DNA of 34,155 bases. Origin: Kiloniellales bacterium (GTDB lineage Bacteria; Pseudomonadota; Alphaproteobacteria; JBHICX01). The notes under the pieces were generated by a model. The model was not told where the DNA came from and did no database searches. It saw only the letters and a list, made by a program, of their open reading frames with translations. Each line of letters begins with the position of its first letter. The first letter of the stretch is position 1. Below are positions 10,256 through 29,262 of this stretch, one piece after another. The DNA lies in NCBI GenBank assembly GCA_046759805.1, contig JBHICX010000002.1, positions 1 to 34,155 on the forward strand. The letters are read 5' to 3'. Both the position numbers and the translations under genes were made by a program.

Positions 10256-11115
10256 TGCCAATCGATTCGTCGACATCCCAAGTGGTGGTCTATCTCGGCT
10301 ATCACAAGACCGCCAGCAAATGGGTGTGGAACAATTTCTTCAAGCGCCATTACCCGTGCCGCCAGGTGAACCTGTTCGAGCGGCCGGCGGCCGAGTTGAG
10401 AAAGACCATAGGCGGCACCGGCTCCCCCTTCATCCTGCGCCAGCGCATCGAAGGCGGCCTCATGGGCGGGGAGTTGCCGGCCCTGGTGGAGACCATTGCC
10501 GAGGCGTTCCCCGATGCCCGGGTGGTCGCCGGAATCCGCTCCCAGCGCTCGATGCTGCCGTCCCACTACGGCCAGTACGTCACCAACGGCGGGCGGCTGG
10601 GGTTCGCCGCCTATCTCGACCAGGTGGTGAAGACCAAGTGGCATTACACGCCCGTCCTCAAGGCCTTCCTCGAGCGGTTCGGCGACAACATGTTCGTGTA
10701 TCTGTTCGAGGAGTTGCGGGAGGACCCGTTCGCGCTCCTGTGCCGGCTGCGTGACTTCGTAGGCGCGCCGGAGGGCGGGCTCGACGACCAGGCGCTGCGG
10801 CGCGTCGCCGCCGTGCCGCCGATGAACCCGCAGCGCAACGACCTGGTCGTCGACACCATGCTGCTGTTGAACCGCCTGCGCATGCGTCACCCGAAGAACG
10901 CCATCTTCCCGGAGCTCCGCCGGCCGGGGCACGACCACATCCTGGTCGAGGTGGCCGAGGTTATCGCCAGGTCCTACGCGGCACGCTACGGCCGGCCGCT
11001 GCGCTACCGCAGGTTCGACGACCGTGGCGCCCTCGGCCCGGCCTATGGGGCGGAGAACCAGGAGTTGTCGGCGCTGCTGGATCGGCCGTTGCGGGACTAT
11101 GGCTATCCGAGCTAA
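10255..11115 (+). CDS. sulfotransferase-family protein
   Basis: Start ATG 10255 (TGATG overlap). 286 aa. VVVYLGYHKTASKWV is 5'-PSB-like and AGIRSQRSMLPSHYGQYV is 3'-PB-like. The upstream part of track ORF 9736..11115 is a shadow extension. Confidence 0.55.
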   Translation: MPIDSSTSQVVVYLGYHKTASKWVWNNFFKRHYPCRQVNLFERPAAELRKTIGGTGSPFILRQRIEGGLMGGELPALVETIAEAFPDARVVAGIRSQRSMLPSHYGQYVTNGGRLGFAAYLDQVVKTKWHYTPVLKAFLERFGDNMFVYLFEELREDPFALLCRLRDFVGAPEGGLDDQALRRVAAVPPMNPQRNDLVVDTMLLLNRLRMRHPKNAIFPELRRPGHDHILVEVAEVIARSYAARYGRPLRYRRFDDRGALGPAYGAENQELSALLDRPLRDYGYPS

Positions 11116-11131
11116 GGCGACCGCGGCGCCC

Positions 11132-12649
11132 ATGCGCGTCCTGCGCGATCTGGTGCCCCTGCTGCTGCTGGCGAGTTGGCCGTTCGTGGCGTTCCTCGCC
11201 GCGAACAAGGCGCAGATCTTTCGCCTCGAAGATGTCCTGGTTCCCTGGGGTGCCTACGTTGTTGCCCTGACCGCCGGGGCGTTGCTCGCCGCGCGTTGGA
11301 TCAGGGGCCTCTCGCTTGTGCGCGTCGCCATCGTCGTAGGCGCGCTGAGCGCCACCTTCTTCGGCTTCGGCAGCCTCGGCCACCTGCTCGGCCTCGCCGG
11401 CATCGAGCTCGGCACCGTTTGGCTGCTGGTCTGGCTGGTCGCCTTTGCCGCCGTCGGCGGCTTGTGCTGGGTGTTCTCGCGGCGGCCCGCCGCCTGGCTC
11501 GTTACCACGGTTGTGGCCGCGGCATTCCTCGTCTGGCCCAGCCTCGATCTGGCCTCAGCCTGGTTCACCGGCGGCAGCCGGCAGGCGGGCGAGGACAAAG
11601 TGGCGACGACGCAACCGGGCACCGGCAAGATGCCCAACGTCTACTGGTTCCTGCTCGACGGCTATGTGCGCGATGACAGCCTCAGGCGCTACTTCGCCCA
11701 CGACAACGGGCCGTTCGTGCAATTCCTGAGCGAGCGCGGCTTCCAGATCGGCTGGGCCAGCCATTCCAACTACGACAACACCACCTTCTCGCTCGCCTCG
11801 ACCATGGGCATGGATTACGTGTACCTGCCGGGTGAGCCACGCCCTCCATCGCGCGCTTACACGCGCACGCTCGCCGGCTTCAATCCGGTGGTGCGCAAGT
11901 TCCTGGCCACGGGCTACCGCTACATCCACGCGCCTTACGCCGGTTCAGCGAAGACCCAGTGCGGCGGCCTGGAGCACCGCTGCATCCGCGCCCGGCCGAG
12001 CGGGCGCATCCCCCTGAACGAGGTACAGGTGAACCTGTTGCGCTTGACGCCGCTGTTCCGGGTCATCCGCCGGCTGATGCCGGGGGCGTTCCGCTACGAC
12101 CACATCTTCATCGCCGACGTGATGGCCGCCATGCGCGACGGGGAGGCGGCGCCGTTCTTCCTGTTCGCCCACATCCTGTCGCCGCACGCGCCGCCGCGCT
12201 TCACTCCGGAATGCCGGCGCCTGGACGATGTGGCCGCCAGCCTCGACGTCGGCGAGGGGTTCTACGATCCGGTCCAGTTCCGCACCGACGTTAGATGCAC
12301 CAACCGGTCGCTGGAGCGGGCAGTCCGGGAGATCGTCGAACGGGACTCGAGCGACCCGATAATCATCCTGCAAGGCGACCATGGCTTCAAATTCCGCCTG
12401 CCCGGGGAGTCGGAGGGCGCACTCGAGGCCGCCGCCGACGGCGTCCTAGCGGCTCGCCGTCTGGCCATCCTGAACGCGATCCGCTTGCCTACGGCCTGCC
12501 GGGACCGGTTTTACGAGACCATCTCGCCGGTCAACACCTTCCGGCTCGTGTTCGCATGCATCGAGGGCCGCCAGCCCGAATTCGTCGCCGACCGGCACTT
12601 CCTTCGCCCTCGGGGATCGGAGGGGGGCCTCAAGGAAGTGCATCCGTGA
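11132..12649 (+). CDS. membrane-anchored sulfatase-fold (alkaline phosphatase superfamily, LtaS/EptA-like) hydrolase/transferase, paralog 1
   Basis: Start taken at ATG 11132 (MRVLRDLVPLLLLASWPFVAFL..). About 5 N-terminal hydrophobic helices, then MPNVYWFLLDGYVRDD (metal-site Asp), NTTFSLASTMGM (Ser/Thr nucleophile region), HILSPHAPPRF and ILQGDHGFKF. No C/S-x-P-x-R formylglycine motif seen. Confidence 0.75.
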   Translation: MRVLRDLVPLLLLASWPFVAFLAANKAQIFRLEDVLVPWGAYVVALTAGALLAARWIRGLSLVRVAIVVGALSATFFGFGSLGHLLGLAGIELGTVWLLVWLVAFAAVGGLCWVFSRRPAAWLVTTVVAAAFLVWPSLDLASAWFTGGSRQAGEDKVATTQPGTGKMPNVYWFLLDGYVRDDSLRRYFAHDNGPFVQFLSERGFQIGWASHSNYDNTTFSLASTMGMDYVYLPGEPRPPSRAYTRTLAGFNPVVRKFLATGYRYIHAPYAGSAKTQCGGLEHRCIRARPSGRIPLNEVQVNLLRLTPLFRVIRRLMPGAFRYDHIFIADVMAAMRDGEAAPFFLFAHILSPHAPPRFTPECRRLDDVAASLDVGEGFYDPVQFRTDVRCTNRSLERAVREIVERDSSDPIIILQGDHGFKFRLPGESEGALEAAADGVLAARRLAILNAIRLPTACRDRFYETISPVNTFRLVFACIEGRQPEFVADRHFLRPRGSEGGLKEVHP

Positions 12650-12699: not shown

Positions 12700-13578
12700 G
12701 TGATTCCGGGAGCGGCGTCCGGCATGCGACTTAAGGAGTTCGTCCCCCGCCCGCTGCGGCCGGCCGCCAAACGCGCCTACGACAGCTTACGGGTACAATA
12801 CGACCGGCACGTGCACGAGCGCCCGAGTGCCTCTTATCGCCGTAGGGTCTCTAAGCGGGCCACGCTGCCCGGCTTCCTGGAGTACGCGGAAAAACTGTGC
12901 GCCGACGGGGGTGTGGTGATCCCGGGTTTCTTCGGCGAGGATCGCCTGACCGAAATGCGCGAGGAGTTCGAGCGGCTGGTGGCAACCAACCCGCCCAATC
13001 CGGACTCGGCGAAGGACCACTCGGTGCACATCGCCACCGCGCGTTTCCGCGAAACGGCCCTGTTCAGCGAACTCACGTTCGAGCCCAACATGCTGGCGCT
13101 GGTCCAGTACTACTGGGGCAAGCCGGTGGTCCTACACGGCACCGGGGGAACGCGTTACGAGCCCGCCCGCCTGGACGACCGCGGCTCCAACCAGTGGCAC
13201 CACGACGGCAAGCGCAAGCAGGTCCGCGCCTTCATTTTCCTCACCGACGTGCCGGCGGACGGACAGGGCACCCAGTTCGTGCCCGGCAGCCACCGCATCT
13301 TCCACCACGACATCACCCGATCCCGGGCGAGTGAGGCGGAGGTATTGGCTTACGGGACCCCGGTTAGCTGCGCCGGTCCCGCCGGATCGATCGCCATGAT
13401 CGACACCAACGCCTTCCACCGCGCCACGCGCAACCTGGGGCCCCGGCGCGATACCTGGGCCTATTCGTATCGGGCGCCCAACCCGATGTCGACGCAACTC
13501 AATCCGGTCCCCGTGCTGCATCCCGACGTCGTGGAAAGGCTGACCGAGGAGCAGCGTTGGATCGCCCGGATCGCCTGA
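12700..13578 (+). CDS. phytanoyl-CoA dioxygenase (PhyH)-family Fe(II)/2-oxoglutarate dioxygenase
   Basis: 292 aa from GTG 12700 (alternative ATG at 12724). NQWHHDGKRKQVRAFIFLTDV..GTQFVPGSHR carries the H-x-D ... PGSH pattern of PhyH enzymes. Confidence 0.8.
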   Translation: MIPGAASGMRLKEFVPRPLRPAAKRAYDSLRVQYDRHVHERPSASYRRRVSKRATLPGFLEYAEKLCADGGVVIPGFFGEDRLTEMREEFERLVATNPPNPDSAKDHSVHIATARFRETALFSELTFEPNMLALVQYYWGKPVVLHGTGGTRYEPARLDDRGSNQWHHDGKRKQVRAFIFLTDVPADGQGTQFVPGSHRIFHHDITRSRASEAEVLAYGTPVSCAGPAGSIAMIDTNAFHRATRNLGPRRDTWAYSYRAPNPMSTQLNPVPVLHPDVVERLTEEQRWIARIA

Positions 13579-13652: not shown

Positions 13653-15017
13653 ATGAGCCGAAACCAGATCGCGGCCCTGTTCCTCGCCGCCGTCCTGATC
13701 CGGCTCGCCTATGTCGGGGTGGTGGTGCTGTTGGACGGCAGCTTCGACAACGGCAGCGACTCGGGCAAGTACCTGATACGGGCCTCGAACCTCCTGCAAT
13801 ACGGCGCCATCGTCTATTGGGACCACGGGGTGCTCATTCCCGACACCGCGCGCATGCCGCTCTATCCCTACTTCCTGGCCGGCGTTCTGGGCGCAATTGG
13901 CGAGGATGCGCTGTGGGCGGTGGCGGTCCTCCAGGCGTTCATCGACGCCGCCACGGTCATCGCCGTCGGCCTGATTGCCGGCTTGATCGACCGCCGATGG
14001 GCGGTGCCAGCGGCGGCGCTCGCCTGCGTATGGACGACGATGGTTGTCTATTCGTCCTTCGTGTTGACCGACACCCTGTTCCTGGCCTTTTTCGCCTGGG
14101 GGCTGTGCGCCTGCCTGTGGGCGGTGCGAAGCCAACGCAAGGTAGTGTTGCTTATTGCTGCCGGCGCTTGTTTCGGGCTCGCCGTGCTCACCCGCCCGAT
14201 CTTGATTTTCTTTCCCTATCTGCTCATGCCGGCGCTTGCTTGCATGTTGTGGGCCGCGGCCGGGCTCGGATGGCGACGCGCCATCGGACTGGCGGCGATT
14301 CCCGCCCTCCTGCTGGCCGCGGCGCTCATGCCGCGCCTGGGCATGACCTACGCCCACTACGGCGCGCCGGTGGTCACCACCCAGACTGGGAACCAGGCCC
14401 TCGACGTGGTCGACCAGTTCCTGCGCCTGTGCCCGCAATGTGTGGCCGAGCGGAGGGAGCAAGGCATGCACGCGAAGGTTGCGGCACTGTTGGACCAGGA
14501 GGATGCGGCGGATCGAAGGAATCCGCTAGTCCTCGACCGCATTCGCCGCGAGGTGGCATTCGAATACTTGAAGGAGTTGCCGCCCCTCGTGGTGCTTCGG
14601 GGCGTGCTCACCGCGGTCCTGCGCTCGACGCTGCAGACCGGGCTCTACGAGGCCGGATACCAGCTCAACCGCAACCCGATGTTCTTCTCCGCCGCCCCCG
14701 GGGCGTCCTTGGCGGCCCGAATCTGGAACTTCGCCAAGGCCGTCCTCGGCGACGGCTACCTGTTCGCCTGGGCGCTGGCCCAGGCCGCCGTGCTCATTGG
14801 CTTCGCGCTTCAGCTGGGGGGTGTCGTGGCCGGCGTCCGGGACCCGGGTGCCCGGCCTTTCGTCATGTTCCTGATGGCGGTCGCCGCCTACTTCCTGGCG
14901 CTCAACGGCCCGTTCGGCAATCCGCGCTACGGCATGCCGCTGGCGCCCACGTTGGTCGTGCTCACCGTCGCCGGGGGCTTCCTGGTATGGCGGCGGCTTG
15001 CTAACCGGCGAATTTGA
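13653..15017 (+). CDS. GT-C fold membrane glycosyltransferase (ArnT/PMT_2, GT39/GT83-like)
   Basis: Start taken at ATG 13653 (MSRNQIAALFLAAVLIRLAYV..). 454 aa and polytopic (>=9 hydrophobic segments). First-loop acidic motif DNGSDSGKY, then MPLYPYFLAGV, typical of ArnT/PMT-like enzymes. Confidence 0.65.
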   Translation: MSRNQIAALFLAAVLIRLAYVGVVVLLDGSFDNGSDSGKYLIRASNLLQYGAIVYWDHGVLIPDTARMPLYPYFLAGVLGAIGEDALWAVAVLQAFIDAATVIAVGLIAGLIDRRWAVPAAALACVWTTMVVYSSFVLTDTLFLAFFAWGLCACLWAVRSQRKVVLLIAAGACFGLAVLTRPILIFFPYLLMPALACMLWAAAGLGWRRAIGLAAIPALLLAAALMPRLGMTYAHYGAPVVTTQTGNQALDVVDQFLRLCPQCVAERREQGMHAKVAALLDQEDAADRRNPLVLDRIRREVAFEYLKELPPLVVLRGVLTAVLRSTLQTGLYEAGYQLNRNPMFFSAAPGASLAARIWNFAKAVLGDGYLFAWALAQAAVLIGFALQLGGVVAGVRDPGARPFVMFLMAVAAYFLALNGPFGNPRYGMPLAPTLVVLTVAGGFLVWRRLANRRI

Positions 15018-15018
15018 C

Positions 15019-15846
15019 ATGACCCGCGACGACGTGCGGCTCACGCCGCAGGACAAGCGCCGGTTCGAGACGGACGGCTACTACCTGCTCAAGGGCCTCC
15101 TCGGCCCCGAGGAGGCGCGCGCATACCGGCACCTGATCAATCGAGCCCTCGATCTGCCGGAGACTGACTTGGAGTCCGACCAGATCGGTCAACGCACCTA
15201 CTCGCTGGCCGACGGCGTGACCAAGAGCCCCGACTTCTGGCCGCTGATCTTCAACCGGCGGCTGGTGGCGACGGTGCGGGAGCTGTTGGGAGGCGACATC
15301 CGCTACACCCAGCATTCAGACCTGCACATCAATCTGAGGGGTGGCCGCTACCACCGGGATAGCGCCTGCAGGGAATTTGGCCAGGGCCCCGACTGGGACG
15401 AGACCGAGGCGCCCTACAAGGTGGTGCGGGTCGCGATCTATCTGTCGGATTTCCGCGACAGCGGGTCTTCGATCATCATCCTGCCGGGCAGCCACCGCAG
15501 GGAATCGTCGCTCAACCGGCTGGAGTACGTCGCCTGGAACAAGCTGCGGGCGTTGGCACGCCGGCACGGCCGCAACGACATGCTGCCGCACGTCTTCCTC
15601 ACGCGACCGCAGCTAACCATCAGGACCGAACCGGGCGATTGCGTCGTCTTCGACCAACGGTTGATGCACGCGGGCGGTGTTCTTCGCGGCGCCAATCCGA
15701 AATACTCGGTGTTCCTGGCCTATGGCTTGGACAACCATCATTCGCGGAACCACCGCGCGTTCTTCCTGAAACGACCGACCTACAGCCCGGACATCCCGGC
15801 GGAGCTGCGCGACAGGCTCAAGGCGGAAAACCTGCTGCTCGCCTGA
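15019..15846 (+). CDS. phytanoyl-CoA dioxygenase (PhyH)-family Fe(II)/2-oxoglutarate dioxygenase (second copy)
   Basis: Start ATG 15019, 1 nt after the upstream stop. 275 aa. FETDGYYLLKGLL, GGRYHRDS (H-x-D), VAIYLSDF..IIILPGSHR and VVFDQRLMHAG (distal His). Confidence 0.8.
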   Translation: MTRDDVRLTPQDKRRFETDGYYLLKGLLGPEEARAYRHLINRALDLPETDLESDQIGQRTYSLADGVTKSPDFWPLIFNRRLVATVRELLGGDIRYTQHSDLHINLRGGRYHRDSACREFGQGPDWDETEAPYKVVRVAIYLSDFRDSGSSIIILPGSHRRESSLNRLEYVAWNKLRALARRHGRNDMLPHVFLTRPQLTIRTEPGDCVVFDQRLMHAGGVLRGANPKYSVFLAYGLDNHHSRNHRAFFLKRPTYSPDIPAELRDRLKAENLLLA

Positions 15847-16739: not shown

Positions 16740-17472
16740 GGCGATGGCGCATACGGTCTGCGTGGTGTTGGCGCGCGGCGGCTCCAAGGGCATCCCGGCC
16801 AAGAACCTGGCCGATTTCTGCAGCAAGCCGCTCTTGGCCTGGACCCTCGAACAGGCCCTGGCGGCGACCCGCATCGACCAGGTTTGGGTGAGCTCCGACA
16901 GCGATGCGGTCCTCGACCTCGCCCGGTCGCTCGGCGCCGGGACGATCCGGCGGCCGGCGGCGCTGGCCGGCGACGGGGCGAGCTCGGAGTCCGGCTGGCT
17001 GCACGCGCTCGAGGTCCTGGAGGGCGAAGGTACTACCGTCGACCTCATGGTCGGGCCGCAATGCACCTCGCCGGTGCGCCAAGCCGCCGACTTCGACCGG
17101 GCGATCGAGCGGTTCCAGGCGGAGGGGTTGGATTCACTGTTTTCGGCGACGCTGTTGCCGCATTTCAACTTCTGGCGCACCGACGCGCGCGGCCGGTTCG
17201 CGAGCTTCAACTACGATTACCGGCGGCGCGGATTCCGTCAGGACCAGCCGCCGCAATACCTCGAGAACGGGTCGTTCTACCTGATGAAGCCGGAGATCCT
17301 GCGCCGGCACAACAACCGGCTCGGCGGCCGGATCGGCGTCTACTGCATGGACTTCTGGAAAAGCTTCCAGATCGACGAGGCGGAGGACCTGCGCTTCTGC
17401 GAGACCTTGATGCGCGCCTATCTACCGAATGACGTCGCGGCGGCGCGAACCGGCCAAGACACGGGATCATGA
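16729..17472 (+). CDS. acylneuraminate cytidylyltransferase (NeuA-type CMP-nonulosonate synthetase), second copy
   Basis: 247 aa (alternative ATG at 16744). CVVLARGGSKGIPAKNL signature. Overlaps the NeuB-like stop by 11 nt if it starts at 16729. Confidence 0.85.
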   Translation: MSPEAMAHTVCVVLARGGSKGIPAKNLADFCSKPLLAWTLEQALAATRIDQVWVSSDSDAVLDLARSLGAGTIRRPAALAGDGASSESGWLHALEVLEGEGTTVDLMVGPQCTSPVRQAADFDRAIERFQAEGLDSLFSATLLPHFNFWRTDARGRFASFNYDYRRRGFRQDQPPQYLENGSFYLMKPEILRRHNNRLGGRIGVYCMDFWKSFQIDEAEDLRFCETLMRAYLPNDVAAARTGQDTGS

Positions 17473-19223
17473 ATACCCCAACGGATGGCGACCAACGTCC
17501 TGCTCCCTGGCTGATCGGCGGGCCGGGGCGCAGCGGCAAGACCACGCTCGCGCTGGCGCTGAACAAGGGCGAGGGACCGGTCGCCGGGTTCCCGGTGGAG
17601 GGGCTGTTCACCTACTATCTGAAGCGCCGTTTCCTGAACTTCCCGGTGCACCGGCGTCAACTGTTGGCAGAGTACCTGACCCGGCCGCGCTATATGGACA
17701 GCGACCGGGACGTGGTGCGACGGCCCATCGAGTTCTTCCACCGGCCGCTCACGGACATCCTGGCGCGCATCCCGGCGACCGTCCGGCACCGGATCGACCT
17801 CATCGACTGGGCCTTGCAACGCTTCGCCGAGGATAACGGACGGCGGACATGGGCCGCCTTCGACCTGCATCCCGAGTTCCGCTACCCGAGCTTCCGGCGG
17901 CGCATCCCGGGATTGAAGCTGGCGGTGATGGTGCGCGACCCGCGCCGGTCGCTCCACGACATGATGCATTGGCGCCGCACGCCGATCGGCACGCCGCGCT
18001 TCGAGCGGCGCTTCCGGCACAGCCTCGTCATGTGGTGCCTGGGGCTCCAGGCGGCGCGGCGGCGCGCCAGGCGCTATCCCGGCGACGTCGTGCTGTTCTG
18101 CTTCGACGCCTTGATCCGGGGCGAGGCGCAGGAATGCGCGCGACTGGCCGACGCCTTCGGCATGCAGGCCGAGGCGCTTCGCGCCGCCTTCGCCTTCGAG
18201 CCGGCGCTGCGGCCCGAGGAGGGCAATCAAGCCGACCACCCGGGGCCGGACTTCTCCGCGCCCTACCTGGCCGAGATCGACCTCTTGTGCCGGCCGCTTG
18301 CCGGCGAATTCGTCCGCCAATTCGCGGCACCCGCGGCCGCCACGCGGGCGGCGCGGCGCGGGTTCCTGCGGGTGGCGCGGCTCCTCCTCGCCCTCGGACG
18401 CGTCTCGCCGCGCCTGGCTCGCCTGGCCGCCGACTTCGTCTATTTCCCCGCGAACAGCGCCCGGCGCATGGGCAACTCGCTGCTGCGCGTGGCACGGGAC
18501 AACCTCCACGCGATCGGGGGTCGGGCGCCGGGCGACGCCCCGATGGGGCGCCGCCCCGGACGCCCGTTGTTCTTCGTGGTCGCAGGCGCGCACGGCGTCG
18601 GCAAGTCCACCACCGTCGCCCAATGCCTGCGCATCCTTGAACGCCGCTCGATCCACGCCGAAGCCTTCCACCACGTCGTCGATACCCGTGGCGCCGGGAC
18701 CGGATCGCGCCACGCCGCGGGCCGCGCCGCGCCGCTCGGCTGGCGCCGCCTGGTGCCGGCGATGGTCAAGCTGGTCCTGGTGAGCCTCATCGACGAGGTG
18801 CGATACGCCTCCCGTGTCCACGGTCTCCTGCGGCGCGCGCTCAAGTCCGGGAAGCTCTCGGTCGCCGACCGCTACGTCTACGACCGCTGGGTCGATCTGC
18901 GGATCAGGGGTCGTCCATGGACGCAGATCGCCTCGGTGCGCCTGGCCTGCATGCTCATGCGCAAGCCGCGGCTGGTGGTGGTCCTGGAGGACGACCCGGC
19001 GCAGATCGCCCGGCGGAAGTCGGAGCTCACGGTCGAGGAGATCCGGCGCTACCAGGACGACCTGCCGCGGTTCCTGGAACGGCTGGGCGTCCCCCGCGCG
19101 GTGGTACGCATCGGCGGCCGGGACCCAGCCGCGGTGGCGGAGGAGGCGGTGCGGCGGATGCTGGCCGCGGCCGGCGACGCGGTGACCCCGTTCCTGGTCC
19201 CGGTGAGAAAGGCGGCGGAATGA
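17469..19223 (+). CDS. two-domain P-loop protein: N-terminal sulfotransferase-like domain fused to C-terminal thymidylate-kinase-like P-loop domain
   Basis: 584 aa with an ATGA overlap upstream. N-domain: LIGGPGRSGKTTL (5'-PSB/P-loop, aa 15-27) and LAVMVRDPRRSLHDMM (3'-PB-like, aa 151-166). Arg/Ala-rich linker at about aa 285-365. C-domain: FFVVAGAHGVGKSTT (aa 368-382), ADRYVYDRWVD and VVVLEDDPAQIARRK. Confidence 0.55.
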   Translation: MNTPTDGDQRPAPWLIGGPGRSGKTTLALALNKGEGPVAGFPVEGLFTYYLKRRFLNFPVHRRQLLAEYLTRPRYMDSDRDVVRRPIEFFHRPLTDILARIPATVRHRIDLIDWALQRFAEDNGRRTWAAFDLHPEFRYPSFRRRIPGLKLAVMVRDPRRSLHDMMHWRRTPIGTPRFERRFRHSLVMWCLGLQAARRRARRYPGDVVLFCFDALIRGEAQECARLADAFGMQAEALRAAFAFEPALRPEEGNQADHPGPDFSAPYLAEIDLLCRPLAGEFVRQFAAPAAATRAARRGFLRVARLLLALGRVSPRLARLAADFVYFPANSARRMGNSLLRVARDNLHAIGGRAPGDAPMGRRPGRPLFFVVAGAHGVGKSTTVAQCLRILERRSIHAEAFHHVVDTRGAGTGSRHAAGRAAPLGWRRLVPAMVKLVLVSLIDEVRYASRVHGLLRRALKSGKLSVADRYVYDRWVDLRIRGRPWTQIASVRLACMLMRKPRLVVVLEDDPAQIARRKSELTVEEIRRYQDDLPRFLERLGVPRAVVRIGGRDPAAVAEEAVRRMLAAAGDAVTPFLVPVRKAAE

Positions 19224-19233
19224 GGGCGCGCCG

Positions 19234-20754
19234 ATGACGCCGGGATCGGTCGGTTCGCGCGCCATGACCTGGCTGCCGCTGCCGTTGTTCGGGGCCTGGC
19301 CGTTCCTCGCCTTCCTCAACCACAATCAGGAGGACGCGCTCGACTACGGCGCGTCGGTCCTCGGGCTCGGCGCCGCCTATGTGGTGGTGCTGGCGGTTGC
19401 GGCGCTTGTCGCCGGGCTTCTGTTCCGGCGCAGCGCCCGGGCGCCAGCGGTGAACGCGCTGTGTGTGCTGACGGTGATGTTCTTCACCTATCTGCCGTTC
19501 TCGCGGACGCTCGCGGCCATGGGCGTCTCGCTGGGGACGGTGCGCCTCAGCCTGTGGCTCATATGCGCGCTGGGCCTGGCGGCGCTGGCCTGGCGGCTGT
19601 CGCGCTTCCAACGGGCGTCGTTCGTCGCCGCGCTCATGGGGGCGTTGCTGGTCGCCATGCCGGGGGTGCAACTGGCCTGGTTCGCCGCCGAGGGCGCCAT
19701 GGGGGGCCGGGCCGCTGACGCCGGCCCGCGGGTGGTCGGGGCGCAGGCGGAATCGCCCCCCAACGTGTACTGGTTCGTATTCGACATGTATGCCCGTGCC
19801 GACGTGCTGGAGGCGTATCTGGGCTACGACAACGGCGACTTCCTGGCCGCGCTCGGCCGGCGCGGCTTCTTCGTCGCCGATGAAGCGGTGGCCAACTACA
19901 GCAGTACCAAGCTTTCGCTCAGCACCACGGTCAGCATGGACTACTACCTGCCGGTGGGGCCGAAGCTGCATCCGCGGCTGTGGACCGACCGCCTGCAGGG
20001 CTACAACGCCGTGGTCGAGCGCTTCCATCAGCTGGGCTACCGCTACATCCACGCCGAGCCAGGCGGGGTCAACCGCAAGACCCGCTGCGGCGGCCGCGAG
20101 CAGCAGTGCATCTCCGGGCCGACCCGGGGCGTTCTCGGCATCAGCGAGGCGGAGGCCGGCCTCTTGAAACTGACGCCCTTGTATCCGGTGCTGATCGTCC
20201 TGGCGCCCGGCCTGCTGAGCTTCGATTTCACCGGCCTCGACGACGTGATCGCGGCGGTGCGGCTGGATGCCGAGCGGCCGCACTTCCTGTTCGCGCACAT
20301 CCTCTCGCCGCACCCGCCGGCCCGCTTCGGTCCCGGCTGCCGCCGCCTCACACGAACCGCCTGGGAGCTGGTCACCGAGGATTCCCCGAAGACCCGTACT
20401 GCCTACCTGCACGACCTCGGCTGCCTCAATCGGTTGATCCTGGAGGCGATCGACGAGATCCTGGCGCGGGATCGAAGCGACCCGATCCTGATCCTGCAGG
20501 GGGACCACGGCCTTAAGTTCGGCGCCGCGCCAGCTGGCGCCAGCGGCATGGAGCCGTGGCTGGGGGTGCACGGCATCCTGCATGCCATGCGTCGCCCTGA
20601 ACGCTGCCGCGACGATGCCTCTTCGCGCTTTTCGACGGTGAACACCTTCCGTATCGTGTTCGCCTGCATCGAGGAGACGCCCCTGGACCTGCTTGCCAAT
20701 CGGGTGTTCCGCTACCGCGGCCGCACGCTCACCGAGCTGGTGGCGGATTACTGA
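19234..20754 (+). CDS. membrane-anchored sulfatase-fold (alkaline phosphatase superfamily) hydrolase/transferase, paralog 2
   Basis: 506 aa (alternative Met at 19264). Collinear with 11132..12649: GAWPFLAFLNHNQ / ASWPFVAFLAANK; PPNVYWFVFDMYARAD / MPNVYWFLLDGYVRDD; SSTKLSLSTTVSMDYYL / DNTTFSLASTMGMDYVYL; HILSPHPPARF; ILQGDHGLKF; NTFRIVFACIEE. Confidence 0.75.
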   Translation: MTPGSVGSRAMTWLPLPLFGAWPFLAFLNHNQEDALDYGASVLGLGAAYVVVLAVAALVAGLLFRRSARAPAVNALCVLTVMFFTYLPFSRTLAAMGVSLGTVRLSLWLICALGLAALAWRLSRFQRASFVAALMGALLVAMPGVQLAWFAAEGAMGGRAADAGPRVVGAQAESPPNVYWFVFDMYARADVLEAYLGYDNGDFLAALGRRGFFVADEAVANYSSTKLSLSTTVSMDYYLPVGPKLHPRLWTDRLQGYNAVVERFHQLGYRYIHAEPGGVNRKTRCGGREQQCISGPTRGVLGISEAEAGLLKLTPLYPVLIVLAPGLLSFDFTGLDDVIAAVRLDAERPHFLFAHILSPHPPARFGPGCRRLTRTAWELVTEDSPKTRTAYLHDLGCLNRLILEAIDEILARDRSDPILILQGDHGLKFGAAPAGASGMEPWLGVHGILHAMRRPERCRDDASSRFSTVNTFRIVFACIEETPLDLLANRVFRYRGRTLTELVADY

Positions 20755-22279: not shown

Positions 22280-23649
22280 CGTTTCGTCTCCCGGACCACG
22301 CGCCGGCGGGTCTCGGCGGGGTAGAGGGCGAACTCATCGAGCACCGATTGCATGAGGCTCCCCGCCACGCGGACTATGGCCAGATGACCTTCACCCTCGC
22401 CGGTCGGTCGGGCGAAACGGTGGCCTATCATCGGCCGGACATAGGCGGAATCTCCAGGCGCCAGCTCGGTTTGGTGCCGGTCGCCCCAGTTGAGGGCGAC
22501 CGCGGCATCGCCGTAGTTGTAGACGTACTCGTGGAGGCCGTGGCGCAGGACCGCGTCCCCGGTGTCCTCGGCGAGAACCGTCACCTCGAATCCCTTGAGC
22601 CCCGGTTGATGCTTGGTGCGGGCGAGCTCGGTCAGGCGGTAGGCGGCCCGGTTCGAGTCGGGCGGAAAGGCCCGGCTCGGCGACCGCGCCCTGGTGCGCA
22701 CCACCACCTCCTCCTTCGGCGTGAGCTGGCTGACCATCAGGTCGGCGGGTCGCAGATCGAGCGCCGCGGCCAGCGCCGCGACCTCCGCCCCTTGGGGAAG
22801 CCGCGCCCCGGCGGCCAGCGCCGCCGCCGCTTCCTCGTCGAGGCCGGCGTCCACGAGGCGGCGCATGAGCTCGCCCGAGGTCAGGCTTTCCGCCGCCAAG
22901 GCGCGGACGATGCGCGCGGCGAAGGCGCCCTGAGGGTCGCGCAGGTCCCCGGCCAGTCGATCGAGATCCGGTCCCTCCAGGTGGCGCAGGGCGTCGAGCG
23001 CGCCACGCACCTCGCCGGCATAGGTGACGGCGATGATAAGCCCCAGTCGCCGCGGATCGCGGCTGGTGAAGCTGTGACGGACGAACGGGGTGATGTAGTT
23101 CGAATCGCCGGTGTTCATCTCGGCACAGTAGCCGCGCCCATCGATCCGCCAGTAGAAGTTCACCGCGCCGACGAAGAAGGTCAACTGATGCATCAGGTGG
23201 CCGTTGTTGTAGGCCACGTCCGGATTATCCGGGTCCGAATCCTCGACCAGGCGCAGCGGCCGGATCCACTCCGGCTTGAAGGGGGCGAGCCGGCTCATCG
23301 CCGTATCGCGATAGTCGTAGTAGGGCGTCTCGGACCCGGCCCGGTCCTTGCGCTCGAAGACGCGCGACGACGCGTCGGAGTCCGCCCTGCGCATCACCTT
23401 GACACCGTCCTCGGTATCGTCGGCTTCCACCCACAGGTCGGCGAGCGAGATCGGGTAGGCCTCGGCCATCGCGGTGAGCAGCGATCGGGCGGTCGCCTCA
23501 TCGGCCTCACCGGCGATCACCCGACGCACCGTCGCCGGATCCCGGTTCAGCTCCCGCGCCAGCGCCTCGGGGGTGCGTTTGAGGTCGTTGGCCTCGCTGA
23601 GGATGCGGGCGCCCAGCGCCTGAAGGTGTCGGGCCTTTCGGTCTTGCAT
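22270..23649 (-). CDS. HppE/HEPD/MPnS-family non-heme Fe(II) dioxygenase (HTH + double cupin); candidate methylphosphonate synthase
   Basis: Start taken at ATG 23647-23649, overlapping the upstream TGA by 1 nt. 459 aa. XRE-like HTH ARILSEANDLKRTPEALARELNRDPATVRRVIAGE. Cupin 1: VAYNNGH151LMHQ155LTFFVGAVNF165...GDSNYI186TPFVRH192SF. Cupin 2: HEYVYNYGD..LAPGDSAYVRPMIGHRF. Upstream ORF residues 23650..23832 are judged to be a shadow extension. Confidence 0.8.
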   Translation of the reverse strand: MQDRKARHLQALGARILSEANDLKRTPEALARELNRDPATVRRVIAGEADEATARSLLTAMAEAYPISLADLWVEADDTEDGVKVMRRADSDASSRVFERKDRAGSETPYYDYRDTAMSRLAPFKPEWIRPLRLVEDSDPDNPDVAYNNGHLMHQLTFFVGAVNFYWRIDGRGYCAEMNTGDSNYITPFVRHSFTSRDPRRLGLIIAVTYAGEVRGALDALRHLEGPDLDRLAGDLRDPQGAFAARIVRALAAESLTSGELMRRLVDAGLDEEAAAALAAGARLPQGAEVAALAAALDLRPADLMVSQLTPKEEVVVRTRARSPSRAFPPDSNRAAYRLTELARTKHQPGLKGFEVTVLAEDTGDAVLRHGLHEYVYNYGDAAVALNWGDRHQTELAPGDSAYVRPMIGHRFARPTGEGEGHLAIVRVAGSLMQSVLDEFALYPAETRRRVVRETKRWF

Positions 23650-24452
23650 CACGTCACCCCGGCGGCTTCGACGATGGTGAACAGGCGTTGGCGGGCGGAG
23701 ATCGAGGCGAGCCTTTGGTAGTCCTGCGGCGTATCGAGTTCGGCCCAGCCCCGCTCGACCAGCGCGCAGTCGACCCGGATTCCCCGATTCACGAGCTCCT
23801 GGATCATATCCGTGATGTAGGCCTGGCGCCATTCCGTCGCCTCATGGAACGGCGCCAGCGGGTCGAGGCGTCGCGCCAATTCCTCGAACACGTTCCGGAA
23901 GGCGGCCGCGCCGGCGGCGCTCATTCGCCACAGGCCCAGGAATTCGCCACAGTTGTAGGAGGCCGCGTCGGCGGGATCAAGATGCTTGCCGGCCTTGAGG
24001 ACCGCGCCGTCGGCGGAAAGGAACACGTTCTCCGCCTCCTCGACCGGGTGGTCGGTGCGGCCCTCGTAATAGGCCCGCCAGTCGGTGTCGACGGCCAGCA
24101 CGATATCGCCGGGGGTCTCGACGAGCCGGCGGTAGATCGTCGGCTCGACCCAGATGTCGGAGTAGGTGGCGATGACCGGCCCGGCCAGATGATCGCGGGC
24201 GCACATGAACGAGTGCAGGATGTTGTTGTCGAGATAGTCCTGGTTCTCGACGCGAACGATCTCGCCCTGGTCGATGCGGTGACCGAGATAGCCGGTGACC
24301 ACCACCACCGTCCCGCAGCCGACATGGCGCAGGCGCTCGATCGTGTGCTCGATGAGCGGCCGTCCGGCCACCGGAAGCAGGCACTTGGGAATGTCCTTCG
24401 CGACGGCGTCCATCCGGGCGCCGCGCCCGGCCGCGATCACGATGCCCTTCAT
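23649..24452 (-). CDS. LicC/PntC-like nucleotidyltransferase (probable cytidylyltransferase for a phospho(no)-alcohol/phosphonate)
   Basis: Start taken at ATG 24450-24452, preceded by GAGGTGAG. 267 aa. MKGIVIAAGRGARMDAVAKDIPKCLLPVAGRPLIEHTIERL..VVVVTGYLGHRI is the NTP_transferase (GXGTRL...PK) signature, most like LicC-type enzymes. Confidence 0.8.
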   Translation of the reverse strand: MKGIVIAAGRGARMDAVAKDIPKCLLPVAGRPLIEHTIERLRHVGCGTVVVVTGYLGHRIDQGEIVRVENQDYLDNNILHSFMCARDHLAGPVIATYSDIWVEPTIYRRLVETPGDIVLAVDTDWRAYYEGRTDHPVEEAENVFLSADGAVLKAGKHLDPADAASYNCGEFLGLWRMSAAGAAAFRNVFEELARRLDPLAPFHEATEWRQAYITDMIQELVNRGIRVDCALVERGWAELDTPQDYQRLASISARQRLFTIVEAAGVT

Positions 24453-24468: not shown

Positions 24469-25653
24469 TCATTCGGCGCAAACGCCCGAGCGGCTCCGTG
24501 CGAGTTCGGCGATTGCGTCGGCGCCGCGAATGCCGCTCGTTCCAAGGTTGTAGATCCAAGTCTCCCGCATCCGGCGCGCCCGAGCGGCGAAGGAATCCGC
24601 GGTGTCCCACAGGGATTGTATCATCGCCGGCGCTTCGGACAATCGGTCCGGCGCCAGGACGGCCCCGATCTCCTCGCGGATGGCGACCTCCAGCGGCACC
24701 GCGCCCAGCCGCGTATATTCGGGATTGTTCACCTTGCGCGGCACGTCGACGAACAGCACCGGCCGTTCGAGCCCGAAGGCGAACTCCATCGCCACGCCGG
24801 ACCAATCGCTGATCATCAGGTGCGACCGGATGAGCGGGCCGAAGGAGGTGGTGTCCTCGTCGAGGGCGAAACCGGGACGCTCCTGGAAGCGCCCGTGAAG
24901 ATCGTCCAGAACACGCGGCGTGCGCCGGCGGGTCTGCGGATGCGGACGCACGCTCACCTGGTGCCCAGCGGCAAGCAGGATCTCCACCAGTTCCGCGCCG
25001 CAGGTCTCCAACAGCCCGTTCGCACCCCAGGACGGCGCCACCAGGACGCGCACCCCCTGGTCCGCGGGGGCCGGGCCGGGGTGTGCAGTGGCCGCGTCCA
25101 GGAGCGCGTCCAGGGGACCGTAGCCGTGGCGGAACAACCGCTTGGCCGGCAGGCCGTTGAGCCGCTCCCACTCCCGGGTCTCGGCCTCGTGATGGGGGCC
25201 GACGCACAGCACCGAATCGAAATGGTCGAAGGCGCCGCGGCGATAGATCATATGGGTGCTGACCATGGAATGGTGCAGGTAGACGTAATGCACCGGATGC
25301 AGCGAGCGCAGGAGGTGAAGGCTGTGCAGGTCGGGCATGGTCATCACCATGACGCCCGCCTCGATCGACCGAAACAGGTAGGTCTGCGCGGCCCCGTCGC
25401 CGATATAGAAGGCGAGGATGCGCGGGTCGTTGCCTCGAAGCAACGGATCCCGCGGGTCGGAGGTGAGGTAGCAGAGGGACTGGCCGTGCCGCCGGGTGAG
25501 CGCATCGACCACCGGCTTGAAGAACACCCAGTAGGCGGCGCCCTCGGAGTAGAACACCACCCGCCGCGCCTCGGGATCGAGCCTCTGCACCCGCCGGACG
25601 TCGCGCCAGGAACGCAAGACTTGCAACAGACCGCTCATCAAAGGCCGTTCCAT
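24469..25653 (-). CDS. TagB/TagF-like CDP-alcohol phosphotransferase family protein (Glyphos_transf-like)
   Basis: 394 aa (alternative Met at 25638). VLVAPSWG.., VRPHPQT.., SHLMISDWSGVAMEFAFGLERPVLFVD resemble the TagF catalytic-domain pattern (..P.W.., HP.., L[IM]xDYSS..xDF..l.kP.iF). Composition is normal, unlike the two overlapping Arg/Pro/Gly-rich alternative-frame ORFs. Confidence 0.65.
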   Translation of the reverse strand: MERPLMSGLLQVLRSWRDVRRVQRLDPEARRVVFYSEGAAYWVFFKPVVDALTRRHGQSLCYLTSDPRDPLLRGNDPRILAFYIGDGAAQTYLFRSIEAGVMVMTMPDLHSLHLLRSLHPVHYVYLHHSMVSTHMIYRRGAFDHFDSVLCVGPHHEAETREWERLNGLPAKRLFRHGYGPLDALLDAATAHPGPAPADQGVRVLVAPSWGANGLLETCGAELVEILLAAGHQVSVRPHPQTRRRTPRVLDDLHGRFQERPGFALDEDTTSFGPLIRSHLMISDWSGVAMEFAFGLERPVLFVDVPRKVNNPEYTRLGAVPLEVAIREEIGAVLAPDRLSEAPAMIQSLWDTADSFAARARRMRETWIYNLGTSGIRGADAIAELARSRSGVCAE

Positions 25654-25739
25654 CGAAGCGCGGGCGGCCGAGACTGGGTAAGTTTCGCCGTCCGGTCAAG
25701 CGATGCCGGTTCGACCGGATCCGGACGGAGCCATTCGCC
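25654..25739. promoter_or_regulatory. divergent intergenic region between the minus-strand phosphonate cassette and the resumed plus-strand genes; contains nested inverted repeats
   Basis: This 86-bp gap is the only sizeable divergent gap in the window. ccgtccgg (25688-25695) pairs with ccggacgg (25721-25728). Inside it lies the palindrome ccggt-tcg-accgg (25706-25718). No convincing sigma-70 hexamers were identified by eye. Confidence 0.3.
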
Positions 25740-25979
25740 ATGAACCATTCGTTCCGCCTCCTCGTCACAATGGCGTTCGTGGCCGGGCTCATGCCGTCCG
25801 AGGCGTGGGCCTATCTCGACCCCGGCACCGGCGGCATGCTGTTGCAGCTCTTGCTCGGCGGCGTCGCCGGCGCACTGGTGGTGATCAAGCTCTACTGGAG
25901 TCGCCTGCGCGAGGTGACGGCGCGCATCATGCGCGGCCACCAGGATAAGCCAGAGGACGGCCGCGCCGAGCCCGATTGA
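25740..25979 (+). CDS. small membrane/secreted protein of unknown function, paralog B (AY[IL]D.GT.GMLLQLL motif)
   Basis: 79 aa: MNHSFRLLVTMAFVAGLMPSEAWA-YLDPGTGGMLLQLLLGGVAGALVVIKLYWSRLREVTARIMRG.. Collinear with 20812..21087 at both protein and DNA level. Confidence 0.6.
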   Translation: MNHSFRLLVTMAFVAGLMPSEAWAYLDPGTGGMLLQLLLGGVAGALVVIKLYWSRLREVTARIMRGHQDKPEDGRAEPD

Positions 25980-27414
25980 CGGCGCCCGCGACAACCGAAC
26001 AGCCGGCGATGCAGGCCCAGTTGGATCCCGGCTCGTTCAAGGACCCCGAGGGGCGCGTGATCGTGCATCGGGGCGAGGTCTACCGCACCTTGACCGAGGA
26101 CGCGGCCCGGCGCATGCGCGCCAGCCGCGAGACCTTGGAGGCGCTCTGCCGCGACGGCCGGCTGATCGCCACCCGGCTCGTCTCCCGCGACGAGGCCGGG
26201 TTGCCGGCGGGGGTGGGCGGCGAGACCCTGTTGCACCACGAACGGGTGCCGGTCATCACCTATCCGTTCGAATGGTCCTTCGACATGCTTCGCGAGGCGG
26301 CGCTGTGCACGCTCGAGGTGCTGGAGACCTGCCTCGAGCGCGGCCTCATCCTTAAGGACGCCTCGGCCTACAACGTCGCCTTCCACCGCGGGCGCATGGT
26401 GTTCATCGACACCCTGTCGATCGACGCTTACGCCGAGGGCGAGCCCTGGGACGGCTATGCCCAGTTCTGCCGCGAGTTCCTGTTCCCGCTGATGCTGACC
26501 GCCTATCGCGGGGTCGAGTTCCAGCCCTGGTTCCGCGGCCGGCTCAACGGCCTGGCGCTGGCCGACCTGGCGCGTCTCCTCACCTGGCGCGACCTGTTGC
26601 GCAAGGGGGTGCTGCGCCATGTGGTCCTGCAGCGCCGGCTGGAGCGCTGGTTCGCCGGCGCCGACATGGAGATTCGCGGCCGGTTTCGCGACATCCGGTT
26701 CTCCAAAGGGATGATCCTGGCGAACCTGCGCGGCCTGCGAAAGGTTGTCGCATCGCTCGCTTACCGGGCGGCGGAGTCGCACTGGCTCGACTATACGGAA
26801 AAGAGCTCGTATTCCGATGAGGAACGGGCCCAGAAGGCGGACTTCGTCGGGCGAGCCTTGGATCGCCTCGCGCCGGCCCAGGTCGTCGACCTGGGCTGCA
26901 ACATCGGCGACCACGCGCTTATCGCCGCCGGGCGGGCGGCGCAAGTGGTCGCCGCCGACTTGGACCCGGCTTGCGTCAACACCCTCTACCGCCGCCTGGG
27001 CGCGGATGACGTGCGCAACGTGACGCCGATGGTCGCCGACCTTCTCAACCCCTCGCCGGGCCTGGGCTGGGACTTGCGCGAACGCAGCCCCTTGTTCGAC
27101 CGCATCCGCTCCGACGCCTTCCTGGCGCTGGCGCTGGTCCACCACGTGGCGATCGACGGCAACGTGCCGCTGGCCGCGTTCCTGGACCGGCTCAGTGACA
27201 TCGCCCCGGCGGGCGTCGTCGAATGGGTCGACAAGCAGGACGGCATGGTCCGCCGCATGCTGAGAAACCGCACCGACGTGTTCCCCGACTATGACTGGGC
27301 GCACTTCGAGCGCCTGCTGCGCGAGCGCTTTACCCTGGCCGAGGTAGCCGAAAGCCACCAGGGCCAGCGCAAGCTCTGCCTGGTGTTGCCGCGGGACAGG
27401 GAGCCCCCGAGCCC

Positions 27415-27418
<4 letters not shown>
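25976..27418 (+). CDS. fusion protein: N-terminal protein-kinase-like/choline-kinase-like domain + C-terminal class I SAM-dependent methyltransferase
   Basis: 480 aa from TTG 25976 (overlaps the upstream TGA; alternative ATG at 26009). N-domain: GLILKDASAYNVAF and MVFIDTLS resemble the catalytic-loop D-x4-N and the metal-binding Asp of APH/choline-kinase folds. C-domain: VVDLGCNIGDHAL (SAM motif I) and VVAADLD. Confidence 0.6.

Positions 27419-29258
<1,840 letters not shown>

Positions 29259-29262
<4 letters not shown>

Follow-up and report, generated by a model that had tools for sequence, protein, structure and literature searches.

A TagF-like protein encoded beside methylphosphonate genes in a Kiloniellales bacterium as a candidate transferase of small phosphorus-containing head groups

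In this study, which was based on a 34,155-nucleotide (nt) stretch of DNA from a Kiloniellales bacterium (contig JBHICX010000002.1, hereafter the window) and on a comparison of gene neighbourhoods, we examined a minus-strand gene at positions 24469-25653 that encodes a candidate transferase of phosphonyl or phospho head groups with the GT-B fold of TagF. An earlier note on this DNA had proposed that the TagF fold was repurposed here to move a phosphonyl group from a cytidine monophosphate (CMP)-phosphonate to a glycan. With moderate confidence, we consider this enzyme of the TagF lineage to be the candidate transferase of a "make, activate, transfer" module, which would move methylphosphonate from a nucleoside monophosphate (NMP)-phosphonate. 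The basis for this reading is the fold, the structure of the operon, the identity of the neighbouring genes and the neighbourhoods across the whole family.

The TagF-like gene and its operon

Translation of the minus strand between 24469 and 25653 gave an open reading frame (ORF) of 394 amino acids (aa); read on the plus strand, these positions are riddled with stops. The earlier note had claimed this ORF and left its strand unstated; the ORF is real, and all three of the motifs that were quoted from it could be located in the minus-strand translation, i.e., VLVAPSWG at residues 203-210, RPHPQ at residues 236-240 and LMISDWSG...LFVD (LMISDWSGVAMEFAFGLERPVLFVD) at residues 279-303. The G+C content at the third codon positions (GC3) of this frame is 0.85, as it is for the true genes in this DNA (the GC content of the window is 68%). 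A search at E<=1e-3 yielded more than 2,900 homologues, and when 1.84 billion representatives were scanned in full with HMMER, 1,212 cluster representatives matched at E<=1e-30. The TagF-like protein is a genuine gene product, and a chance ORF is excluded. Because the alignments of the homologues begin at Met6, the gene may start at 25638, which would give a protein of 389 aa. The residues H128, S132, H134, E158, R236, H238, D283 and G286 were invariant in 199-200 of 200 family members. The protein has no transmembrane (TM) segment and, in the AlphaFold2 model, an N-terminal helix at residues 5-24; we take it to be soluble and probably membrane-peripheral. A tblastn search of a plasmid collection with this protein gave no matches.

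The gene is followed on the minus strand by genes for a nucleotidyltransferase (24452-23649), a methylphosphonate synthase (MPnS)-type cupin dioxygenase (23649-22270) and an Fe-dependent alcohol dehydrogenase (Fe-ADH; 22279-21104). Between the stop of the TagF-like gene at 24469 and the ATG of the nucleotidyltransferase gene at 24452 there are 16 nt, which contain GAGGTGAG; the nucleotidyltransferase and MPnS genes overlap by the TGA of the former and the ATG of the latter at 23649, as do the MPnS and Fe-ADH genes by stop and start at 22279. The four genes are translationally coupled. Upstream lies an 86-base-pair (bp) divergent intergenic region (25654-25739), beyond which a plus-strand operon for a small membrane protein, a methyltransferase-like protein and an ABC exporter begins. 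The TagF-like gene is the first of its operon, as had been claimed. A scan of the operon for promoters and terminators was uninformative, with no consensus promoter in 25654-25739. On a homologous contig, whose TagF-like protein is 82% identical, the first three genes recur with unchanged lengths of 389, 267 and 459 aa.

The nucleotidyltransferase (267 aa, beginning MKGIVIAAGRG) belongs to PF12804 (E 4.5e-17) and is presumed to form the NMP-phosphonate. Its best PDB match was LicC (1jyk, E 1.6e-12), which agrees with its earlier description as LicC-like. PntC was a weaker match (6pd1, E 9e-4), the protein is 25-30% identical to the PntC domains of Ppm fusions, and it also shows a sub-threshold match of the IspD/TarI type. 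The cupin protein (459 aa, with H/Q/H iron ligands) is closer to the MPnS of Nitrosopumilus maritimus (6b9s, E 1e-81, 278 bits) than to HEPD (6b9r, E 1e-68, 235 bits). It carries the MPnS-like motifs GHLMHQ, VNFYW and NYITPF..H, where HEPD instead has VNYYF and VWGLPF, and has the MPnS-type Phe (in VNFYW) and Ile (in NYITPF) at the positions of Tyr and Gly in HEPD. The pair Phe162/Ile184 reportedly tells MPnS from HEPD, a distinction that is said to go back to Born et al. in 2017. The Fe-ADH, the domains of which are clear, is presumed to be a phosphonoacetaldehyde reductase giving 2-hydroxyethylphosphonate (2-HEP); its best NCBIfam match, TIGR03405 (Phn_Fe-ADH), scored 274 bits, short of its cut-off of 424. 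Genes of the TagD (PF01467) or TarI/TarJ type were not found among the scanned ORFs of the window, in line with the earlier claim of their absence.

As in TagF, TarF and TagB (PF04464; Staphylococcus epidermidis TagF, PDB 3L7I-3L7M), the TagF-like protein has the GT-B fold of two Rossmann domains. Each of its domains carries a conserved histidine motif, which comprises H128 and H134 in the N domain and is the "RPHP" motif with H238 in the C domain. An AlphaFold2 model that was built on the family alignment reached a predicted local distance difference test score (pLDDT) of 92.4 and a predicted template modelling score (pTM) of 0.90. Its top six Foldseek matches in the PDB were all chains of S. 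epidermidis TagF (3l7k, 3l7j and 3l7i; E 8e-13 to 1e-11, TM 0.56-0.59), followed by generic GT-B enzymes and the TagF-like capsule polymerases Cps3D (8QOY) and Bcs3 (8A0M); Campylobacter jejuni HS1.09 has a further TagF-like polymerase domain of this kind. The structure prediction thus gave a TagF-like fold and no assignment to an unrelated family. Precomputed PF04464 matches exist for many of the homologues at 48-59% identity, and the family members that were scanned reach 25-52 bits with this profile. A divergent second PF04464 protein (L155:2321-3580, 25.4 bits), which was found by an HMM search of all of the six-frame ORFs in 169 sequences (the window and the loci described below), lies in an MPnS locus with an APS-kinase-like gene. 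It was considered as a sequence bridge to TagF and dropped, as it has no match among the PDB sequences.

Gene neighbourhoods of the subfamily

To place the operon in the context of its family, 80 loci were taken from species-representative genomes and complemented with metagenome contigs; 293 candidate stretches encoded a relative of the TagF-like protein, and the counts given here are over 82 loci. The relatives come from Alpha- and Gammaproteobacteria, Acidobacteriota, Planctomycetota, Chloroflexota, Actinomycetota, Nitrospinota, Myxococcota, Chlamydiales, Omnitrophota and Nitrosopumilus. The genes of the loci were called with a GC3-aware script and clustered, and the cluster representatives were annotated. 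The most constant neighbour was the LicC-type nucleotidyltransferase, which was present in 60 of the 82 loci when its fusions to Ppm were included. Stand-alone genes for it were found in 58 loci; their distance from the TagF-like gene had a median of 8 bp, and 54 of the 58 copies lay on the same strand.

One of several alternative cassettes was found next to the TagF-like gene in 61 of the 82 loci (29 of the 38 that had at least 8 kb on both sides). The commonest, in 36 loci, is a phosphoramidate-type trio of a PPDK_N/PEP-utilizer protein (a putative glutamine kinase of about 1,000 aa; NF004508, 835 bits), a class-I glutamine amidotransferase (GATase) and the nucleotidyltransferase, which lies directly upstream of the TagF-like gene in the order of Cj1418-Cj1417-Cj1416 of Campylobacter. 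The best NCBIfam match of the GATase was the gamma-glutamyl-CDP-amidate hydrolase, which was sub-threshold (135.6 bits against a cut-off of 250). In C. jejuni, these three enzymes, i.e., the glutamine kinase Cj1418, the gamma-glutamyl-CDP-amidate hydrolase Cj1417 and the cytidylyltransferase Cj1416, make cytidine diphosphoramidate (PMC11800397), a pathway that has been described as Campylobacter-specific (PMC9561416). Examples of the trio are found in L031, L046, L052, L060, L069 (Pseudomonas) and L064 (SAR86), with cassette genes at L042:4019-7003 and L064:2250-2885. Cultured Pseudomonas that carry the cassette include P. brenneri DSM 15294 (L031), P. japonica DSM 22348 and P. canadensis. The window itself, unlike these Campylobacter-type loci, has no phosphoramidate cassette.

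A phosphonate biosynthesis cassette (Ppm-nucleotidyltransferase fusion, Ppd, MPnS-type cupin and Fe-ADH) was found in 15-17 of the 82 loci, with Ppm in 11 related loci. In the locus of a Nitrosopumilus single-amplified genome (L078), the genes for the TagF-like protein, the nucleotidyltransferase, MPnS, Fe-ADH, Ppm, a split Ppd and a sulfatase-like protein occur together. The Fe-ADH and TagF-like genes occur without MPnS in L022, L033 and L056, and Ppm and Ppd are also present in the latter two. Five loci combine the nucleotidyltransferase with an ABC importer for phosphonates of the PhnD/PhnC/PhnE type (L024, L029, L037, L044 and L067, e.g., L037:6585-7463 and L044:1623-3194; PhnD/PhnC/PhnD-PhnE). 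By analogy with choline in the Lic pathway, this suggests that scavenged phosphonates could be activated and installed. Three further loci have a cassette of ATP sulfurylase and pyruvate kinase: the ATP-sulfurylase homologue adjoins the TagF-like gene (L038:11139-13681, L043:3952-6512 and L041:8853-9923) and is followed by pyruvate kinase in L038 and L043. These may represent another nucleotide-activated oxyanion donor.

None of the 82 loci had the phosphonate and the phosphoramidate cassettes together, and this mutual exclusivity argues that the cassette supplies the donor. The association with phosphonate genes that the earlier proposal implies was observed in the loci with the phosphonate cassette and in the five importer loci, but the phosphoramidate-type context was commoner. 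Since it is the commonest one, P-X groups in general (phosphorus bearing CH3, NH2 or a similarly small group) seem to be handled by the family. In a rough neighbour-joining tree of the TagF-like proteins, the types of context were interspersed. The clade of the window's protein comprised MPnS, Ppm and importer contexts and some cassette-free loci, with no phosphoramidate context.

Genes for membrane proteins were also frequent in these neighbourhoods. Sulfatase-superfamily genes, the products of which have an LtaS/EptA-like membrane topology, were present in 44 of the 82 loci. A YidC-like paralogue adjoins the TagF-like gene in 17 loci (e.g., L071:11567-13075), and in P0256, P0262 and P0267 a YidC/Oxa1-like domain is fused to the N-terminus of the TagF-like domain; the label "YidC/Oxa1 insertase" that many family members bear at the JGI is probably due to this adjacency or fusion. 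In 17 loci, one of which is the window, a membrane protein of about 80 aa ("AYLDPGTG...KLYW") lies beside the TagF-like or YidC-like genes. Further fusions of the TagF-like domain are those to a formyltransferase-like domain (P0169) and to an ABC ATPase (P0226).

The association was also viewed from the side of MPnS, using 80 loci of the MPnS family that were drawn from metagenomes. A nucleotidyltransferase gene was present in 52 of them, an APS-kinase-family gene in 20 (e.g., L088:12529-13065 and L100:8138-8659) and a TagF-like gene in nine, with the latter two together in a single locus. Conversely, an APS-kinase homologue was found in one of the 82 TagF-like loci (L068) and in none of the 36 phosphoramidate-type loci. 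This differs from Campylobacter, in which the APS-kinase-type enzyme Cj1415 3'-phosphorylates CDP-amidate ahead of transfer (PMC11800397). As the 36 loci have no gene of the Cj1415 type, the donor there would not be 3'-phosphorylated. The near-exclusive occurrence of TagF-like and APS-kinase-like genes therefore points to two alternative routes from the activated P-X group to the surface. By analogy, the pattern suggests that one would use a 3'-phosphorylated donor resembling 3'-phosphoadenosine-5'-phosphosulfate (PAPS), which for the MPnS loci would be a 3'-phospho-NMP-methylphosphonate, and that the other would proceed without a kinase via the TagF-like enzyme. In one MPnS locus, a sulfotransferase-family gene (L100:6856-8073) adjoins the APS-kinase gene. 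Previous work on marine MPnS neighbourhoods listed glycosyltransferases, a choline phosphotransferase of the LicD type, an adenylyltransferase and an arylsulfatase, with a TagF-like gene unmentioned (PMC9381506).

Proposed function and competing explanations

The best interpretation of the subfamily is that its members transfer small nucleotide-activated P-X head groups, in the window methylphosphonate, and are not phosphonate-specific; phosphonyl transfer by the TagF fold is best supported because of the co-occurrence with phosphonate genes and the conserved LicC-type partner. In the following scheme, we infer the donor and its nucleotide, the residues that take part in catalysis, the acceptor and where phosphonoacetaldehyde comes from. 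The Fe-ADH would reduce phosphonoacetaldehyde, which could come from a distant ppm gene or from scavenged 2-aminoethylphosphonate (AEP), to 2-HEP, and MPnS would convert 2-HEP to methylphosphonate. The LicC-like enzyme would condense the phosphonate with a nucleoside triphosphate, probably CTP, to an NMP-phosphonate anhydride; in the loci without MPnS (L022, L033 and L056), 2-HEP would be the phosphonate that is activated. The donor would be an analogue of a cytidine-diphosphate compound with CH3 on the distal phosphorus in place of O-glycerol. An acceptor hydroxyl, deprotonated by H128 or H134 of the N domain, would attack the phosphonate phosphorus, and NMP would leave, held by R236 and H238 of the "RPHP" motif in the C domain. 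The reaction is predicted to leave a methylphosphonate monoester, on the cytoplasmic side, on a glycan of the cell surface or on its lipid-linked precursor. As methylphosphonate has no hydroxyl, this product would not be extendable, in agreement with the earlier note; one made with 2-HEP, which has a free hydroxyl, could in principle be extended like glycerol phosphate.

The predicted chemistry is that of TagF, in which CMP is displaced from a cytidine-diphosphate-type anhydride by the attack of a hydroxyl on its distal phosphorus. TagF-like enzymes are described as relying on two essential histidines, one per domain (H444 and H584 in TagF; Schertzer 2005, as cited in PMC11924219), a rule that H128/H134 and H238 of this family would match. 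The protein of the window differs from TagF in that it is a single domain of 390 aa without long membrane-targeting or TPR regions, in that its partner is an activating enzyme of the LicC and not of the TagD/TarI type, and in that the group on its predicted donors is CH3, NH2 or another one of similar size and not an alcohol. Moreover, at least with methylphosphonate it is predicted to be a capping enzyme and not a polymerase. CDP-amidate, as in Campylobacter, and CMP-methylphosphonate differ solely in NH2 and CH3, and the fact that the two are isosteric would explain why one family serves both types of cassette and why no alignment column separates them.

Among the known systems, the Lic pathway of phosphocholine decoration (LicA/LicC/LicD) and PntC share this logic: a small phosphorus head group is activated by a LicC-family enzyme to a CMP or CDP derivative and, as is predicted here, put onto a surface glycan by a dedicated transferase. 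There, the transferase that is named is LicD-like; here it is TagF-like. The LicD fold is unrelated to the TagF-like fold. The nucleotidyl activation of phosphonates is established, and LicD-like transferases or glycosyltransferases have been named as the likely next step (PMC6697681). The window resembles the Pnt clusters of Rice et al. (2019) in having a PF12804 nucleotidyltransferase of the LicC/PntC type close to phosphonate genes but lacks their defining gene, Ppm (PF13714, EDKXXXXXNS motif). Similarly, it shares a 6b9s-like MPnS with the methylphosphonate cluster of N. maritimus, and a homologue of its TagF-like protein occurs in the Nitrosopumilus locus L078, but it has no Ppm and Ppd. 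The O-methyl phosphoramidate (MeOPN) transferases of C. jejuni, Cj1421 and Cj1422, are assigned as such by genetics only (PMC11800397), and the literature consulted describes no fold for them. Our literature search found no published link of a TagF-like protein or glycerophosphotransferase to phosphonates, phosphonoglycans or phosphoramidates; in the cases that we examined in which both phosphoramidate and TagF appear, the proteins were true CDP-glycerol enzymes of Campylobacter capsules.

Several observations weigh against the proposed function. The majority of the TagF-like homologues in the 82 loci lie outside phosphonate loci, and most MPnS loci have no TagF-like gene. Within 10 kb of three close relatives (L004, L007 and L008, 57-62% identical) there is neither a nucleotidyltransferase gene nor a head-group cassette. 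No alignment column was found that separates the members in a phosphonate context from those in a phosphoramidate context, which may reflect either a loose donor specificity or a true substrate that is common to all of the contexts. At the level of sequence, the match of the window's protein to PF04464 was sub-threshold (E 0.009, 15.4 bits against a cut-off of 22.1), an NCBIfam scan gave no matches, and neither phmmer with the protein nor hmmsearch with a 40-sequence family profile found a TagF-like match among all of the PDB sequences. The designation "TagF-type" thus holds for the fold, but its link in sequence is weak. The correspondence of H128/H134 and H238 to H444 and H584 of TagF is putative. 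Finally, no ORF of the window matched PEP_mutase, Ppm and Ppd are absent from the whole 34 kb, and a tblastn search of the window with 11 Ppm seeds matched the nucleotidyltransferase domain alone. The formation of the C-P bond is therefore not encoded in the window, which provides for the later steps and for activation, and the claim that the operon makes a phosphonate stands for the phosphonoacetaldehyde reductase and MPnS steps but not for that first one. Considering all of these points, a repurposed TagF fold is still our leading hypothesis; it has to be amended in that the subfamily is neither phosphonate-specific nor the usual partner of MPnS, and the terms "glycan" and "CMP" of the earlier proposal are to be taken as predictions.

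A wider possibility, which we put forward tentatively, is that the subfamily is the common transferase of a widespread and as yet undescribed surface-decoration system that is fed by interchangeable P-X cassettes. The cassettes would provide self-made methylphosphonate, 2-HEP or AEP, imported phosphonates, glutamine-derived phosphoramidate and possibly the product of ATP sulfurylase, and the installing module would consist of the TagF-like enzyme, often the YidC-like paralogue, the membrane protein of about 80 aa and the LtaS/EptA-like enzyme. If this were true, phosphoramidate decoration would extend to Pseudomonas, SAR86, Actinomycetota, Planctomycetota and others, and we would know which enzyme incorporates marine methylphosphonate into the macromolecules of organisms of the Nitrosopumilus type. 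Additionally, 2-HEP donors in the absence of MPnS could even give poly(hydroxyethylphosphonate), a polymer resembling teichoic acid.

The sulfatase-like, YidC-like and small membrane proteins fit the modification of a lipid-linked glycan before its export, or a two-stage route via a lipid intermediate. In the latter, which we regard as rather doubtful, the TagF-like enzyme would load the phosphonyl group onto a membrane lipid or lipid carrier at the inner face, and an enzyme of the LtaS/EptA type would move it to an outer acceptor with the help of the small membrane protein and, in other loci, of the YidC-like paralogue; in that case, the glycan transferase would not be the TagF-like protein itself. 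The sulfatase-superfamily genes of the family, the adjacent or fused YidC-like domains and the small membrane protein are all consistent with such a route. The window itself encodes two membrane-anchored sulfatase-superfamily paralogues on the plus strand, one at 19234-20754 with an N-terminal multi-TM region (LtaS/EptA-like architecture) and the other at 11024-12649, both with four to five N-terminal TM segments that are followed by the catalytic domain. TagF itself acts on lipid-linked acceptors at the membrane. However, we know of no lipid intermediate in phosphonate or phosphoramidate decoration, 38 of the 82 loci have no sulfatase-like gene nearby, and the sulfatase-like proteins might just as well act as hydrolases or modify glycans for an unrelated purpose. 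The ABC exporter of the window also fits a complete assembly in the cytoplasm.

It is quite unlikely that the protein is an ordinary TagF/TagB phosphotransferase, using CDP-glycerol or CDP-ribitol for a teichoic-acid-like linker or a capsule unit, with the phosphonate genes being incidental in a shared polysaccharide locus. Such an enzyme would agree with TagF as the nearest structure, with the weak or positive PF04464 matches across the family, with the name CDP-glycerol glycerophosphotransferase that one NCBI record gives to a homologue and with the sub-threshold IspD/TarI-type match of the nucleotidyltransferase. It is disfavoured because the window has no gene of the TagD or TarI/TarJ type and because the LicC-type neighbour is conserved in phosphonate, CDP-amidate or phosphonate-import cassettes across more than ten phyla, where the exclusivity of the cassettes points to them as the source of the donor; the family is also too distant from canonical TagF for a match to the PDB at the sequence level. 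A sialyltransferase-like GT-B glycosyltransferase that uses a CMP-nonulosonate, with the "HP" motif binding CMP, would suit the NeuB, PF02348 CMP-sugar synthetase-type and DegT aminotransferase genes of the window and the relatives near NeuB (L004, L007, L017 and L025) but is highly improbable and was rejected on the family context, because NeuB lies within 10 kb in only six of the 82 loci, TagF was the best Foldseek match with none of the 50 matches listed described as a sialyltransferase, and the tight coupling is to the LicC-type gene and not to the PF02348 genes.

The accepted source of methane in oxygenated ocean water is the methylphosphonate that occurs as esters in marine dissolved organic matter. 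To our knowledge, no enzyme has so far been identified that attaches methylphosphonate to a macromolecule. More generally, what follows nucleotidyl activation is the gap in the biosynthesis of phosphonate-decorated glycans, for which the TagF-like family, as the candidate transferase that we favour, is a concrete proposal with homologues in a Nitrosopumilus methylphosphonate locus and in cultured Pseudomonas strains. Moreover, the contexts of the family suggest that the phosphoramidate pathway occurs widely and that its transfer step takes another route, one without a kinase.

Other genes of the window and related loci

The remainder of the window is a surface-glycan locus, with genes for NeuB, two PF02348 CMP-sugar synthetases, two DegT aminotransferases and methyltransferases. 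The divergent plus-strand operon next to the TagF-like gene comprises three genes. The first (25740-25979) encodes the unannotated small membrane protein of 79 aa of the "AYLDPGTG...KLYW" family (MNHSFRLL...AYLDPGTGGMLLQ...KLYW), and its stop overlaps the start of the second (25976-27418). The latter encodes a 480-aa methyltransferase-like protein with a weak C-terminal S-adenosylmethionine (SAM)-methyltransferase domain, the homologues of which adjoin the TagF-like gene in L007, L009 and L057. The third (27415-29262) encodes the ABC exporter, a fusion of a transmembrane and a nucleotide-binding domain, which possibly exports the modified product.

Elsewhere on the plus strand, the gene at 17469-19223 lies between a CMP-sugar synthetase gene and a sulfatase-like gene. 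It encodes a protein of 584 aa in which a C-terminal P-loop is the sole recognisable feature (weak matches to AAA_16 and AAA_28 and of the zeta-toxin type) and which has no PDB relative. Two PhyH-family Fe/2-oxoglutarate dioxygenase genes (12700-13578 and 14998-15846, both on the plus strand) flank the gene of a PMT_2-type membrane protein in the glycan locus. Like the window, the loci L001 and L168 have no Ppm or Ppd within 10 kb. In both, where the relatives are 64-65% identical, the nucleotidyltransferase (371 aa; L001:11333-12448 and L168:11324-12439) has an N-terminal DNA-binding domain of the HTH_3/HTH_19 type and may be a fusion of a regulator and an enzyme.

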